Both the position numbers and the translations under genes were made by a program. Shown piece after piece: positions 9,497-23,702 of a stretch of DNA of 25,121 bases (position 1 is its first letter; each line of letters begins with the position of its first letter). A model generated the notes under the pieces. It did not search any database, had not been told where the DNA came from, and worked only from the letters and a program-made list of their open reading frames with translations. The stretch is from a virus (Duplodnaviria > Caudoviricetes), in the IMG/VR virus record IMGVR_UViG_3300027977_000190, positions 1 to 25,121 of that record, one strand, 5' to 3'.

Positions 9497-9502
9497 TATA
9501 GA

Positions 9503-9508
9503 TTACAC
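9503..9508 (-). promoter_or_regulatory. GTGTAA promoter-like motif
   Basis: ttacac on +; 6 nt upstream of the holin ATG 9496, with no SD between. Confidence 0.6.
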
Positions 9509-12217: not shown

Positions 12218-12229
12218 TTTACTTAAATA

Positions 12230-12235
12230 TTACAC
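12230..12235 (-). promoter_or_regulatory. GTGTAA promoter-like motif
   Basis: ttacac on + in the 19-nt terL-portal gap, 12 nt upstream of ATG 12217. Confidence 0.6.
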
Positions 12236-16107: not shown

Positions 16108-16794
16108 TCAATATATATCAATTTCTCCATTATATAAATATTTTTTAACTTTAAATATGATTGATTTTTTTAAATTTTTGATTTGCTTGTATCCTGCTGT
16201 TCTATTTTTTTCTGAAGTTTTATAACCCATCAATTTTGCTGCCTGTTCTTCGTCCTTGCCTTCTATATATAAAAGTTTATAAGCTTTCCATTCTATGGCT
16301 TTTAAAACTTTTTCCATTTTAATATGAATGCTTTTCGCTACGGTTTCAATCTCCATTGAATCTGCTGGCATATCATTTATTTCTTGAGAATGATTTTCAA
16401 TACTAACCGTTAATTTAGTATCATGTGCGTTTTTTTTACTTTTTTCCCAATTAGCATATAATGGACAATTATTACATTGCTTTCCATATATCGCGCAGTC
16501 TTCTTCACTTTGTGCTGCTGCTGCACATTTTAAACATGGTCTGCTAAAATTACTATATTTATTCCTAATTAGGTTTTTGATTTGATTACTTATAATTCTA
16601 TTTACCCAAGGCGCTAAGGGTTTTTTATGATTATATAAATGCCACTTTTTAAAAATATGAATTCTTAATATTTGAGATACATCACTAAAATCCATCCAAG
16701 ATATAGCTGTAAGATTCCATTTAGCTCTCCTTTTAGAGATTTCTAAATTTATTTGAGTCATATTGTCCTCAAAAGAGGATAATTTATTATCCAT
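16108..16794 (-). CDS. Phage-encoded sigma70/ECF-like RNA polymerase sigma factor with a Cys-rich insert
   Basis: Region-2-like DFSDVSQILRIHIFKKWHLYN...LAPWVNRIISNQIKNLIRN and region-4-like AYKLLYIEGKDEEQAAKLMG. Insert CLKC-x9-C-x6-CNNC. Confidence 0.75.
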   Translation of the reverse strand: MDNKLSSFEDNMTQINLEISKRRAKWNLTAISWMDFSDVSQILRIHIFKKWHLYNHKKPLAPWVNRIISNQIKNLIRNKYSNFSRPCLKCAAAAQSEEDCAIYGKQCNNCPLYANWEKSKKNAHDTKLTVSIENHSQEINDMPADSMEIETVAKSIHIKMEKVLKAIEWKAYKLLYIEGKDEEQAAKLMGYKTSEKNRTAGYKQIKNLKKSIIFKVKKYLYNGEIDIY

Positions 16795-17218: not shown

Positions 17219-17259
17219 AATATAAATTATATTAAAAATTAATTAAAATTTCAAGAATA

Positions 17260-17541
17260 TTATTTTCCTTTATTACATCCGCAGCCCTTAGGTCGCGGAG
17301 GAGGACCACCATTATTTCCGTATACTCCGTATGAACACGGAACAGCTCCTCCACCAGCGCTAACGCACATATCATATTCGTATTTATCTGATTTCCATTT
17401 TGCACATTCTGGTGAATCTCCTCCACCATTTTGATTTTTGCTGCTTCGGTTATTTTGTTGATTTGAATTTGTAGATTTTTTAACGATTTCAATAACTAAT
17501 ATCGCTCCCAATCCTGCGATTATTGATCCTTGTAATAGCAT
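17260..17541 (-). CDS. Small membrane-anchored Cys/Gly-rich protein
   Basis: Strong SD AAGGAGAAATTT-ATG, hydrophobic N-terminus, five Cys in the C-terminal half. Confidence 0.65.
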   Translation of the reverse strand: MLLQGSIIAGLGAILVIEIVKKSTNSNQQNNRSSKNQNGGGDSPECAKWKSDKYEYDMCVSAGGGAVPCSYGVYGNNGGPPPRPKGCGCNKGK

Positions 17542-17553
17542 AAATTTCTCCTT

Positions 17554-20340
17554 TTAAAATTGAATATTGTCAGTAGATTGAATACCAGAAAATATAAATG
17601 GTAATTTAAAATTATTATTTAAATTAGATGTATAAACTTGAAGATCACCACTAAATATAGGATTTGTTGTTTGGGTATAATTTCCAGTACTTTCTAAATA
17701 ATTTTGTCCAGTAAATATTTTTACTGGTAATCCTAGAGTGTAACTCCCACCTGTAACGCCTAGATATAGGTTAATATTATTTGATATTGTATTTGGAACT
17801 GTGAATACATTAAAATTAACTCTTGAGTTGCCTGTCGTCAAGTATAATCGTGCGTAATTATTAAAATAATATAAATTAGATTGATTATATAATTCTGATC
17901 CTGTCCAAAAAGCTAAACCTAATTTATTAATAGTTGAATCATTTATATTTGTAACGTTAGAAAATACATATGATTTATTTTTTTCTAAAACTATATTTTT
18001 CATTAATTGATAATTTTTATTATCTATTGTATAAGTTGGAAAAGATGGCAATATAGAATATCCAGTAATTATAGTTTCAGTGCAAAGTGTTTCAGTTAAT
18101 TGTTTTGACTTGCATCGGATTGTTCTTCTCAGAGTCAATGGAAGTTCTGTGGAGTCAAAAGAATAAGTTATAAAATTATATTCTTGAAATTGACCTGTTA
18201 AATTTATCCCAGTAGTAGTTGTTATTGTTTTACTAGCGTTTCCAATGATGTTAAAATATCCACTATATACTCCTCCAGCTGTCCATATTATTTTGTCTGA
18301 GGTATTTGAATTTGGATTAAACTCTATTAATCTATAATTATTTAAAACTTTTTTATTATACTCTGGTTCAAAAATTCTAGTTTGATCTGCTTTTATTTCA
18401 AATGGGTTTGAATTTCCAGAATTAATTTGTAAAAATCTATATTTTTTGCCTCTAAATAAATTAAGAATTCCGCTGGAGTTATTGAATTGAATGTTTCCAT
18501 TTTCGAATTTAACTGTAAAATTAGCCCCAGTAATATTAGGTTTTGGAGGAAGCATTAAATCTGTATTTAAAGTAAATCTTAAATCTTGTTGTATTGCACC
18601 AGAAATTGGATTAAATTGTTTTCCTGTAAAAAATCCACTAAAACCAGAGATCCATCTAAATATTTGAGTTGCAGAATTTAAAGGTACAAGCCATGGAACA
18701 TTAGTAGAAGTATTGTAATAAATTTCTCCTTGTTTTAATGGATATATAGTTTTTATGTCTTTGAAAATTCCAGTAGAAGAATATTCGTTTAATTTATATA
18801 TTTTTTTATTTAAATCATTTTTAATGATTGGATTTTCTAAAATTCCACCTGTAGCATAAAGAGTTAAACCGAAATTTTTATTATTTTTATTAATAATTCC
18901 TGAATTATAAAACTGACAAATTTTTCCTTTTAAAATATATGGTGTATATCTACCGCTAGAAAAATCATATAAATAATCATCAGAAAAAATATTAGTATTA
19001 TTAAAATTAATATTTAAATTAACTGGTATTTCAAATCTTTGACTTTTTAAGCCAGTTATATCTGGTAATAAATTTTCTCCAGTAGCTCTATAAATATATA
19101 AGGTTTCATTTTTTGTTATTAAGTTTGAATTAATATTTCCAGTAATATTTTTTGTATTAATTTTTATCTTAAAATAAGATACTCCATTTTTACCAAGTGA
19201 GTATAAATCAATATTTTTCCCAGAAAGAATACTATTTTGTTCATTTGTCCATTTATAATTATTGCCTATAGTGTTTGGACTTTCTGAAATTTCTTCTATA
19301 ATTTGAGCATCAGATTTACCAAAATAAAATTTTTGAGTTATTACTCCTGTGTTATAAATATAAAAATCTTTAATAAAAAATTGAGGATAAGTTCCAGAAC
19401 AGGCGATATTAAAACCAGAATTTATATTAGATAAATTACCAGTTATATTTGCTGCATATAAGCTTCCCCATCCTAAAGTATTTGGAGTATTAGTCAAAAT
19501 TGGCGTATATTTAACATTTAAATTTCCAGTATAAAAAAATACATTATATCTTGGTTGATTTGGAGACTCTTCTATTTTACCAAAAATTTTATCAGAAGCA
19601 GTATTTATATTTTTTCTTTTATTGGATTTATTTCTATCTGTTATAAGTAATACTCTGTAATCATAGTTATTAATATTATCTTTAGTTAGCCCAGAAAGAA
19701 AGAATATTTTATTATAGCCTACTTTTTCTCCAGTAGCGTAACCCAAAACTTCTCCGCTTGCAACTTGATATCCAGATAATTCAGTTTGAGAGTAAGCTAT
19801 ATTTCCTCCCATATCACCGATTTGAACGCCACTATGATCAAAAATTTCATTAAAATTTTTATAAGGAAATGGTCTTGAGCTCGCTCCTGTGCTAAATGTA
19901 TTCTCGTTAACAAATCCTCCTATAACATAATTTGTTGAATCAATTGTCGTGTTATATCCAGACCAAATTTCATCTATATATAAACCTGTAGATTTTGCAT
20001 TTGTATATGGCAAATTTTCTCTAGAATAATAAATATCATCTATATAAGAAAAAGAAACATCCCCTTCAGCTAATCCTTTTTGAGAAAACCAACCATCTCT
20101 ATACCATTTTCCTAAATAATTTTGTTCTCTTTTTGCTTCTATGCTTTCAAAAAAACGTTGATTTTTTTTCGAAGAACCTTTTAAAATAAATCCTAAATTA
20201 TCTGCTTGATTTATTTTATTTTTAAAATCAGATTTTATTAAATTTAAATTTCCGTTTTCAACAAAAACATCGCCTTTTAATGCTATAAAATCATTAATTA
20301 ATCCTGCGGAAATATTTCCTGTTATTCCAAGTCTTTTCAT
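17554..20340 (-). CDS. Large N/T/S/G-rich virion protein (fibre/baseplate-like, hypothetical)
   Basis: 928-aa ORF with beta-rich composition. LNLFRGKKYRF and IVLEKNKSYVF segments recall repeated cupredoxin-like virion domains. Confidence 0.6.
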   Translation of the reverse strand: MKRLGITGNISAGLINDFIALKGDVFVENGNLNLIKSDFKNKINQADNLGFILKGSSKKNQRFFESIEAKREQNYLGKWYRDGWFSQKGLAEGDVSFSYIDDIYYSRENLPYTNAKSTGLYIDEIWSGYNTTIDSTNYVIGGFVNENTFSTGASSRPFPYKNFNEIFDHSGVQIGDMGGNIAYSQTELSGYQVASGEVLGYATGEKVGYNKIFFLSGLTKDNINNYDYRVLLITDRNKSNKRKNINTASDKIFGKIEESPNQPRYNVFFYTGNLNVKYTPILTNTPNTLGWGSLYAANITGNLSNINSGFNIACSGTYPQFFIKDFYIYNTGVITQKFYFGKSDAQIIEEISESPNTIGNNYKWTNEQNSILSGKNIDLYSLGKNGVSYFKIKINTKNITGNINSNLITKNETLYIYRATGENLLPDITGLKSQRFEIPVNLNINFNNTNIFSDDYLYDFSSGRYTPYILKGKICQFYNSGIINKNNKNFGLTLYATGGILENPIIKNDLNKKIYKLNEYSSTGIFKDIKTIYPLKQGEIYYNTSTNVPWLVPLNSATQIFRWISGFSGFFTGKQFNPISGAIQQDLRFTLNTDLMLPPKPNITGANFTVKFENGNIQFNNSSGILNLFRGKKYRFLQINSGNSNPFEIKADQTRIFEPEYNKKVLNNYRLIEFNPNSNTSDKIIWTAGGVYSGYFNIIGNASKTITTTTGINLTGQFQEYNFITYSFDSTELPLTLRRTIRCKSKQLTETLCTETIITGYSILPSFPTYTIDNKNYQLMKNIVLEKNKSYVFSNVTNINDSTINKLGLAFWTGSELYNQSNLYYFNNYARLYLTTGNSRVNFNVFTVPNTISNNINLYLGVTGGSYTLGLPVKIFTGQNYLESTGNYTQTTNPIFSGDLQVYTSNLNNNFKLPFIFSGIQSTDNIQF

Positions 20341-20479
20341 GAATTTAGCCGTGCTTAATTATAACTGCAGCAGTGTTTTTAAAACAACAAGTAATGACTT
20401 AAACTAGATGGTGTTACGGGTCGCTACTCTATTTTTATGTTTCTCTAAACGGCGCTGATTGGTGTTAAAACTAATGCTC

Positions 20480-20714
20480 CATTTTGTTCGTTCTTTTAAT
20501 TTTTAATTTAAAAGACTCGATATTGCTACCGAGATCGGACTATATCTTGCTTACTAGCTTGAGCTAGTAAGACTGGGCGCTCGTGTCTCTGTTATTGTTG
20601 CGGTAACTCAAGAGTTAGTCTCTACACCTTCATGCTTCGTTTATTTGCCGCGAAGCAAGCTTGGCTCGGTATAATCCACTTGGGACTTCCACCGAATTCA
20701 CCCAGTATGGCCAA
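20480..20714 (-). ncRNA. Group I intron ribozyme core, subgroup IA-like
   Basis: Minus strand: P3 CUGGGUG(20705-20699)/CGCCCAG(20579-20573); P4 UUCGGU/ACCGAG; P5 GUCC/GGAU; P6 region GCCAAGC...GAAGG with stem GCUUCG/CGAAGC; R element GUAGAGACUA; P7.1 CUCU..GUUA/UAAC-AGAG; P8 CUUACUAGC-UCAA-GCUAGUAAG; S element AAGAUAUAGUCC(20548-20537); P9 CUCGGUA-GCAA-UAUCGAG; P9.1 UCUUUUAA/UUAAAAGA; 3' end GAACAAAAUG (omega-G 20480). Confidence 0.92.
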
Positions 20715-20734
20715 TGTTAAAGAACTATATTTTA

Positions 20735-20740
20735 TTACAC
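20735..20740 (-). promoter_or_regulatory. GTGTAA promoter-like motif upstream of the ribozyme
   Basis: ttacac on +, 3 nt after the phoH stop and 29 nt before P3. Confidence 0.55.
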
Positions 20741-20743
20741 CTA

Positions 20744-21469
20744 TTAATTCAATTCTTCAAATTTTTCAATAATATAAGCTAAAATATCATTTCTCATGAT
20801 GTCACTTGTGCCAAATTTAAAAGTTACAATGCCCTTACTTGCACTTTTTTCATCATCAAAGAGCTGATATATTTTTTCAAATCCACTATTCTTAATATCT
20901 GATTGACGAATATCTCCAATAAATATTAATTTACTAAACTTGCCCATTCTTGTGCTAACTAATAAAAGATCATGAATACTTAAATTTTGAGCTTCGTCAC
21001 AAATGATATAACTAGCATTGATACTAAGTCCTCTTAAAAATCCTAATGGAAGTCCTTTGACTCTTTCTTGCTTTAACAATAATTCTGCTTGACCTTTAGG
21101 TAAAAGTTCATGTAGCTTATCCATTAAAGGTTGTAAATATGGATCTAATTTTTCATGAAGATCGCCTTTTAAAAATCCTAAGTTATGAGTGCTACTTTCT
21201 ACGGGATTACGAATATAAAATATCTCTCCTACCTTCTTATTATTAATTGCATGAAGAGCGCAGTAGACGCTTAGTAGACTTTTGGCTGTTCCTGCTGGGC
21301 CTTTGCAGAACATCATCTTAGTAGATTTATCTTGTAAAATTTGAATAAACTTCTTTTGATTTTCTGTCCAATTGAGATCTCTAATATTCAAGGGTTGTTG
21401 AATTTTATCTCTTTGAGGAACTACTGGCGACTTGTCCTCTTTTTGTTCTTTTCTATGTTTTTTAGACAT
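20744..21469 (-). CDS. phoH: PhoH-family ATPase
   Basis: GPAGTAKS Walker A variant, LGFLKGDL.EKLDPY, FLRGLSI, IICDEAQN, TRMG, GDIRQSD and DIMRN. Confidence 0.95.
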   Translation of the reverse strand: MSKKHRKEQKEDKSPVVPQRDKIQQPLNIRDLNWTENQKKFIQILQDKSTKMMFCKGPAGTAKSLLSVYCALHAINNKKVGEIFYIRNPVESSTHNLGFLKGDLHEKLDPYLQPLMDKLHELLPKGQAELLLKQERVKGLPLGFLRGLSINASYIICDEAQNLSIHDLLLVSTRMGKFSKLIFIGDIRQSDIKNSGFEKIYQLFDDEKSASKGIVTFKFGTSDIMRNDILAYIIEKFEELN

Positions 21470-23421: not shown

Positions 23422-23428
23422 TAAGATA

Positions 23429-23434
23429 TTACAC
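23429..23434 (-). promoter_or_regulatory. GTGTAA promoter-like motif
   Basis: ttacac on +; 7 nt upstream of GTG 23421. Confidence 0.6.
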
Positions 23435-23686: not shown

Positions 23687-23692
23687 GTGTAA
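23687..23692 (+). promoter_or_regulatory. GTGTAA promoter-like motif
   Basis: 10 nt upstream of the licD ATG 23703. Confidence 0.6.
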
Positions 23693-23702
23693 TTTATATT
23701 AA

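Follow-up and report, generated by a model that had tools for sequence, protein, structure and literature searches.

A phage group I ribozyme with an apparently split splice-site helix ahead of a late gene

The 25,121 nucleotides (nt) of IMG/VR virus record IMGVR_UViG_3300027977_000190 (the window; all coordinates are positions in it) contain a complete group I ribozyme in the 403-nt gap between phoH and an open reading frame (ORF) of 928 amino acids (aa), all three on the minus strand. Covariation between guide and target, together with the comparison to standard relatives, supports a ribozyme with a split splice-site helix, in which the strand that normally carries the 5' splice site lies downstream of the terminal guanosine (omega-G), shortly before the start codon of the 928-aa gene. 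On balance we lean towards a model in which this ribozyme leader cuts the mRNA off itself at the target, likely ligating the spacer between omega-G and target into a circle. The catalyst appears to work in nature, since in RNA contigs of a close relative the 5' leader of the ribozyme itself follows directly on omega-G; that relative's ribozyme appears to use its omega-G and to end as a circle. The element looks like an intron relative that is trapped between a promoter and a start codon and must remove itself.

Ribozyme core, guide and downstream target

A search of a 701-nt subsequence with the Rfam model RF00028 aligned model positions 1-253 to 20516-20777 on the minus strand (71.4 bits, gathering threshold 50, E 4e-18). 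A second search confirmed the match, and a gathering-level search of the entire window did not detect it. Relatives at four loci (L266, L294, L161 and L210; L numbers designate loci) score 55-83 bits. The match bears out the group I core that had been proposed from the letters of this DNA alone (the sequence-only reading): P3 to P8, the guanosine-binding helix P7 and J8/7 are present (Table 1), and the core is almost invariant among four homologues. The P9 hairpin with UCUUUU (20516-20533) scored as terminator-like; it belongs to the ribozyme fold, and could also end some transcripts. Rfam places P1 in the coding end of phoH. We consider this P1 spurious, and reject an intron within phoH, because PhoH is full length and the stretch in question is identical in relatives without the ribozyme.

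The 3' end can be placed by comparison with a standard intron. The tail of the window's ribozyme, ...AACAAAAUG, ends at G20480, which is followed by GAGCAUUAG, and it has the same motif, (A)ACAAAAUG, as the true 3' splice site of the relative L138. That intron ends ...GAUAACAAAAUG, and joining of its exons restores the reading frame and yields AINYGGNA, which we take to resemble a motif of DNA polymerase I. Because the motif is that of a real 3' splice site, the earlier assignment of G20480 as omega-G is supported. Homology among the ribozyme types stops at 20482, and omega-G is found at the junction of the RNA circle of a relative, as described below.

The P3-P4 pattern, used alone as a query, found 15 loci. 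Four of these (L211, L214, L222 and L223) are standard introns in a gene, and the other 11 have no matching upstream exon strand; all 11 carry AGUUCUUU and a promoter-like motif, and the leader motif is present in 11/11 of these non-standard members and in 0/4 standard introns. L211 and L222 lack a P2, and just AAA or GAAA separates their guide, which is the 3' strand of P1, from P3 (layout of L211: exon ...ACAACGUU↓, guide GACGUUGU, AAA, P3; arrows mark cleavage or splice sites). The window's UUGGCC-AU-ACUGGGUG occupies the same position as the guide in both. UUGGCC, which is followed by AUA at 20708-20706, is therefore read here as the internal guide sequence and not as one strand of a P2, the label that the sequence-only reading had given to its pairing with GGCUAA. 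By sequence comparison the long-range helix is a P1 opened in L1, with U20347·G20712 as the wobble pair at the reactive position and the target strand downstream instead of upstream. The permuted, exon-circularising order proposed earlier holds: omega-G at 20480 precedes the target GGCU at 20350-20347, every type shows this order, and it is supported by the covariation and by the standard relatives.

GGCUAA is invariant in the four type-A homologues, within otherwise variable sequence. Among the guide/target pairs in Table 1 the U is always opposite the guide G, the targets lie 3-35 nt before ATG, and the pair beyond the wobble changes in step (U-A, A-U and, in L299, C-G). Under a strict rule (G, three Watson-Crick pairs, U opposite the G, at most 45 nt before ATG) a matching target is found in 19 of 21 loci and in 12 of 14 guide/target types, compared with 0.324 for mismatched combinations (permutation 1/20000). 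Duplex energies of 15 representatives were -6.69 for matched combinations (the diagonal) versus -5.19 (permutation 36/20000), and those of 14 representatives over the 45 nt before ATG were -6.41 versus -5.33 (permutation 289/20000), with flat controls (upstream 5558/20000, coding 18877/20000, spacer start 16256/20000). In 8/14 types the best guide duplex anywhere downstream of P9 lies 3-26 nt before ATG. The guides also match repeatedly about 40 nt inside the coding region; these matches stem from conserved LGLGG codons, show no covariation and were rejected as targets.

Two copies in one 132-kb contig (L217 and L220) have different matched pairs, GGCC/GGCU and GGGC/GCCU, which from their sequences look orthogonal. 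At L221 (type D) the reactive U of the target is replaced by C, and a terminator-like hairpin, a second GTGTAAT and the gene follow; judged by this arrangement, ribozyme and spacer look like a stand-alone RNA gene. Unlike the window, L213 and L219 have an upstream ATG, in frame, that overlaps their target (AUGAAGGCUAAA..AUG).

RNA contigs, proposed reaction and rival explanations

Words sampled from 20200-20800 are shared by 24 metatranscriptome runs from lake, freshwater and other aquatic sources, in small shares (7-18%) that are not evidence alone. Contigs of runs X1, X4 and X13 cover 20515-20713; contigs were also aligned on the homologue L219, in which omega-G is at 1425. The 278-nt contig of X4 is 96% identical to the window over 20515-20713 (7 differences, 1 gap) and has a depth of 119.6, versus 2-13 for phoH contigs, which is a weak hint only. 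It starts inside the leader, 15 letters before the guide, and ends with 8 letters up to omega-G and 30 letters more, of which the 22 shown repeat the start of the contig. As its end repeats its start, the contig bears the signature of a closed 248-nt cycle in an assembly with k=31. At the junction omega-G is followed by the C of AGUU↓C; since L305 DNA also has a C after omega-G, the position is ambiguous by one base. A 948-nt contig of X1 has the same junction of omega-G and leader for 19 letters. A longer copy of the L305-like strain was searched for and not found. In run X1, contigs that resemble the subtype of L161 and L357 reach a depth of 288.6; one X1 contig that starts about 2 nt past ATG with adapter letters is uninterpretable.

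Upstream of the ribozyme lies GTGTAAT. The exact motif has ten sites in the window (1214-23693, for example 9502-9508, 12229-12235, 23428-23434 and 23687-23693), and 7 of the other 9 are located 5-30 nt 5' of the start of an ORF on the same strand; the looser pattern RTGTAAY is not enriched in the window (18 observed versus 15.25 expected). In relatives that lack the ribozyme the ATG of the next gene comes 9-11 nt after GTGTAAT or AGTATAAT, and across the ribozyme family the spacing GTGTAA(T/C)-7 nt-AGTTCTTT (AGTTC) is constant. GTGTAAT is probably the late promoter of this phage group, giving almost leaderless mRNAs. The ORF at 16108-16794 has a weak Sigma70_r2 match and could encode a matching sigma factor. 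With a start near A20726, the RNA would begin AGUUCUUUAAC-AUUGGCC-AU-P3. In the subtype of L161 and L357 the leader motif is found in the L5 loop instead, a relocation which suggests that GUUCUUU makes a tertiary contact. This subtype has almost no 5' leader; with its guide only a few nt after the promoter-like motif, there is no space for a 5' exon. Two local partners for this region were rejected: UAGGU (20743-39) as the other strand of a P1, as L049 and L062 have AGU in place of its GGU and GTGTAAT is a motif of general occurrence, and AAAGAAC (20496-90) as partner of the leader's GUUCUUU, as this pairing is not conserved.

We propose the following model. Transcription would begin about 7 nt after GTGTAAT, near A20726, and thus in the would-be loop L1; an RNA that starts in L1 would, for that reason, have no 5' exon. 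The guide UUGGCC would dock on GGCU↓AA, and free guanosine or GTP would attack after U20347. The attacking guanosine would become the new 5' end of the mRNA (G + AAAUUC + AUG), with a 6-nt leader that is short like those of other late genes. The 3'-OH of U20347 would then attack after G20480, so that U20347 is joined to G20479 in a rod-like circle of 133 nt (20479-20347). We expect this second step because engineered constructs of the same order circularise with P1 alone. In the freed ribozyme, omega-G would attack the ribozyme's own leader after U20723, giving a predicted circle of 243 nt.

Several observations weigh against this model. The strict rule fails for L221 and L231 (2/14 types), and L280 passes only by means of a different G. 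P1 is short, with four pairs including the wobble and two A-U pairs. We infer the transcription start near A20726 from sequence. The RNA data are assembled contigs of relatives and not the exact sequence of the window, and metatranscriptome libraries can contain DNA. A contig of run X2 (depth 117.9) extends colinearly from phoH past omega-G into the spacer, and therefore unprocessed RNA, or library DNA, is also present. The aligned contigs contain no RNA joint that would show cleavage at U20347, addition of G or a spacer circle. In X1, X2 and X4 the spacer is not covered and no spacer-circle joint occurs, which speaks neither for nor against the model; the spacer of the expressed strain is absent from the reference. 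The site that omega-G attacks, AGUU↓C in the invariant leader, is possibly a conventional 5' splice site. Finally, in a sister subgroup of the ribozymes the whole leader, including GUUCUUU, is complementary to a far-downstream stretch over 8-26 bp (L210, L224, L241, L294, L309 and L335), and these duplexes are all Watson-Crick, with no U·G pair. The pairing may therefore be structural, and cleavage not needed. The sister subgroup as a whole (these six loci, L336 and L342) lies behind ATAAATAAT, a motif resembling the T4 late promoter; the one full downstream ORF read in it, at L294, is small (121 aa) and unrelated.

Some of these points could be accommodated by two other explanations. In the first, the untranslated region would hold a group I intron of the conventional kind, which has AGUU↓C (20723↓20722) as its 5' splice site and whose exons ...AGUU and GAGCAU... 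are ligated. Its leader would pair weakly with the guide (G-C, U·G, U·G), the RNA circle would be the full-length intron circle, and the target near the AUG would serve for alternative or regulatory docking. This would account for a circle junction that links omega-G exactly to the C after AGUU and for the invariance of AGUUCUUU in the main subgroup, and RNA contigs that extend from phoH into the ribozyme make an upstream exon possible. We nevertheless consider it unlikely. The leader is constant while the guide varies, leaving a leader P1 of only 1-2 contiguous pairs for the guides GUCC, GGGC and AGCG, and it is the downstream target that covaries with the guide. Moreover, the subtype of L161 and L357 has no such leader but carries the motif in L5, the upstream 48 nt show no guide complementarity (the 5558/20000 control above), and no ligated-exon joint is seen in the aligned RNA contigs. 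It is likewise doubtful that the ribozyme merely hydrolyses at omega-G and then circularises, with the guide/target pairing as a structural clamp or a translational switch. The long leader/downstream duplexes of the sister subgroup, which lack U·G, speak for such a role, as do the target's position 6 nt from the AUG and the fact that omega-G chemistry is the only chemistry in the RNA data. Against a clamp, a U faces the guide G in all 13 subgroup-1 types with a matching target and is lost only in L221, whose gene has its own promoter. Beyond the wobble, moreover, compensatory U-A, A-U and C-G pairs prolong the helix in the manner of a true P1, and a duplex of just 4-6 bp is weak for a clamp.

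It is very improbable that the element is a decaying intron remnant, inactive, functionless and carried along with the gene. No gene is interrupted and the distribution is sporadic (4/80 phoH neighbourhoods), both in favour of a remnant, but the core is near-invariant across types that differ in guide and spacer, guide and target covary, the omega-G junction is found in RNA at high depth, and the ribozyme is kept in 6/6 loci of the gene family, the window's own record included. The anatomy given in the sequence-only reading, with a P2 opened in its loop, a downstream guide UGCU-G-CAGU and a circle of 96 or 93 nt, is hardly credible to us in this form. The strings that it named are all in the DNA (besides those above, AGUUCUUU at 20726-20719, AAAGACU at 20336-20330, UGCUGCAGU at 20372-20364 and GUUGU at 20388-20384). 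The columns of its P10 (UGCU/AGCA) do contain two compensatory pairs, but these are explained as the base of the spacer rod. Its P1 (GUUGU/GCAGU) fares worse: of the four homologues, two have C and one has A in place of the splice-site U, 70% of the cells are paired, two inner pairs break and there is no compensatory change, so that guide and P1 at 20388-20364 are not conserved. The extension of the long-range helix by AGUUCUUU and AAAGACU, which would have enclosed the AUG, is unsupported for the window's subgroup; the window's best leader duplex has -3.2 kcal/mol versus a shuffled mean of -4.2, and 3/13 types reach <=0.06. As UUGGCC is homologous to the guide of standard relatives and the helix is read as P1, the predicted circle is the one of 133 nt.

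Spacer and gene context

Our model assigns the 129 nt between omega-G and target to the body of the predicted circle. RNAalifold on the four homologues folds the spacer into a long irregular hairpin of 30 pairs, 10 of them with compensatory changes, and leaves free the last ~17 nt, the target included. Single sequences of 14 types, with spacers of 62-141 nt, were also folded; in 12/14 types at least 5 of the first 15 nt of the spacer pair with the last 45 nt, a criterion that is lenient for short spacers. The rod fold would hold the two reactive ends close to each other, much as homology arms do in engineered precursors. A motif, CGUUUAGAGAA..CA..AAAAUAGAG (20425-20452), is conserved in type-A spacers and also occurs, with different flanks, in an RNA contig of X13. 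A sigma-70 promoter in the spacer (TTGTTT-18-TATAAT) was rejected, being absent from the list of the promoter scan and not conserved.

Table 1. Features of the locus and guide/target pairs (arrow, predicted cleavage site)
Feature	Position	Strand	Remarks
phoH (241 aa)	20744..21469	-	PF02562 positions 6-204 of 205; complete; bounds the element, not an exon
GTGTAAT promoter-like motif	20734..20740	-	transcription predicted to start ~7 nt downstream, near A20726
5' leader AGUUCUUUAA	20717..20726	-	family hallmark; circularisation site predicted by homology between U20723 and C20722
Internal guide sequence UUGGCC (P1 3' strand)	20709..20714	-	G20712 is the wobble partner of U20347
Ribozyme core P3-P9	20516..20706	-	Rfam alignment
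P3	20706-20699/20579-20572	-	Rfam alignment
P7	20620-20616/20542-20538	-	Rfam alignment
P7.1/7.2	within core	-	present
P8	20571-20550	-	Rfam alignment; covaries among 4 homologues
P9	20533-20516	-	Rfam alignment; covaries among 4 homologues
P9.1 hairpin (20515-20492) and 3' tail ending in omega-G (G20480)	20480..20515	-	
Spacer, body of predicted 133-nt circle (20479-20347)	20351..20479	-	129 nt; rod-like fold
P1 target strand GGCU↓AA	20345..20350	-	predicted cleavage between U20347 and A20346, 6 nt before the AUG
928-aa late gene downstream of ribozyme	17554..20340	-	AUG at 20340
Guide/target, window type			GGCC / GGCU↓AAAUUC-AUG
Guide/target, L209, L212, L218			GGUCC / GGACU↓AAAC
Guide/target, L220			GGGC / GCCU↓AAAA
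Guide/target, L216, L268, L290			GUCC / GGAU↓
Guide/target, L238, L299, L307			GACC / GGUU↓
Guide/target, L272			AGCG / CGU↓UAAC (also given as CGUU)
Guide/target, L161			GCCC / GGGU↓AAAC
Guide/target, L357			GCC / GGU↓AAAC

The window, a 25-kb fragment of the genome of an uncultured phage, encodes a terminase, an ERCC4 nuclease, PhoH and a ferredoxin-like gene. The C-terminal residue of PhoH is identical in position across 80 relatives from viral contigs. Four of these 80 loci have the ribozyme (L002, which is identical, L049, L053 and L062) and also encode the 928-aa gene; the remaining 76 have neither. The slot after phoH, up to a 143-aa ORF (17219-20743 in the window, compared with L003-L081), is hypervariable, measuring ~40 nt in some relatives and holding 0.4 to >3 kb of unrelated genes in others. 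A TAA at 20361-20359 shuts the frame of the 928-aa ORF upstream and rules out a second exon reading into it. We found no interrupted gene that exon ligation would restore, as there would be for an intron in the strict sense. Nor does the element contain an ORF, and among the 6 loci there is no ribozyme-less allele of the 928-aa gene, as would be expected for a mobile intron.

The 928-aa protein matched no Pfam or PHROG family. Its 18 relatives are all annotated as no more than 'hypothetical protein', and in four of them the similarity is confined to the N-terminal 54%; the Atlas structure model is poor. The product is possibly a fibre-like structural protein. In 6/6 loci on viral contigs with relatives of this protein, the window's own record included, the ribozyme lies upstream (one contig begins inside it), and the genes behind other members of the ribozyme family share the N-terminal region ..KLGLGG... 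Judged by these neighbourhoods, the element is inherited together with the 928-aa gene family. A search of a phage database gave a 50-nt match only, and none of the 9 pattern matches in bacterial genomes is a member of the ribozyme family.

Significance and comparison with known systems

Bacterial and phage group I ribozymes are, to our knowledge, introns inside genes, with one riboswitch-coupled exception. We tentatively raise the possibility that a family of self-targeting group I ribozymes, encoded by freshwater phages, serves as RNA-processing devices and not as introns. Private guide/target pairs would release a late structural mRNA, and two stable circles, a rod of 60-140 nt and a ribozyme of ~245 nt, would have a job of their own in infection, for example as nuclease-resistant trans-acting ribozymes or decoys. 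If true, this would be a new natural topology with a likely new role, in which a leader removes itself and small RNA circles are formed. As a conserved phage family, it would add a target downstream of omega-G, a ribozyme at the extreme 5' end of a late mRNA and fidelity to one gene family. Nature would also have preceded the 'self-targeting and splicing' layout for circular RNA (circRNA) that was engineered in 2023, and circRNA technology would gain compact ribozymes of ~245 nt with many natural orthogonal guide/target pairs. The ribozyme RNA appears abundant in lake metatranscriptomes, and the predictions are directly testable on public reads. In the literature, supplements not covered, we found no natural permuted or self-targeting group I ribozyme of a bacterium or phage with its target downstream of omega-G.

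The circle in the RNA contigs resembles a long-known one. The excised Tetrahymena intron circularises by attack of omega-G near its own 5' end, and in the contigs, too, omega-G is joined a few nt inside the 5' end of the ribozyme; in the phage, however, the loss would amount to just 4 nt, and the site is part of an invariant motif.

Other ribozymes share the position ahead of a coding region. The lariat-capping GIR1 is also derived from group I, lies upstream of an ORF and creates the 5' end of an mRNA; the passages on it in Roth et al. (2021, PMC8637638) describe a remodelled core and a 2',5' lariat cap made by branching, whereas the phage ribozyme has a standard group I core (Rfam 71 bits) and a predicted 5' end with an added guanosine. 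The c-di-GMP-dependent group I ribozyme in a 5' untranslated region, of bacterial type, of Clostridioides difficile is likewise domesticated, and by its choice of cleavage site sets what precedes the start codon (Hausner et al., 2014, PMC3984707). The part of that source that deals with it describes a riboswitch aptamer and the conventional order, 5' exon, intron, 3' exon; in the phage no aptamer is seen and the guide's target is downstream of omega-G.

Permuted precursors have natural precedents. Bacterial circularly permuted group II introns are, in the passages of PMC8637638 devoted to them, natural, self-splicing, situated outside genes and the source of small circles of unknown function, and so far as these passages go they do not abut an ORF; they belong to another ribozyme class with other chemistry. 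In mushroom-coral mitochondria the giant group I intron ND5-717 is a natural permuted precursor, with a permuted intron-exon transcript, back-splicing and a circular exon-containing RNA (Chi et al., 2019, PMC6545197, in the part that concerns this intron). The coral intron is 18-19 kb long and opened in P8, and its reaction restores the ND5 frame; the phage ribozyme is opened in the loop of P1, restores no frame and forms a phage 5' leader.

The closest likeness is with the engineered 'self-targeting and splicing' constructs of 2023, in which an RNA of ribozyme, insert and target circularises the insert with P1 alone (PMC10457212). As the constructs are laid out in the relevant part of that paper, guide and ribozyme come first, then the RNA to be circularised, then a target ending in U, and P1 forms between the two ends, as we propose for the phage. 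The phage ribozyme differs in being natural and of a phage-type class with P7.1/7.2 and no P2, in having as its insert a non-coding rod of 62-141 nt, and in carrying behind the target a whole mRNA, which is predicted to be released with an added G.

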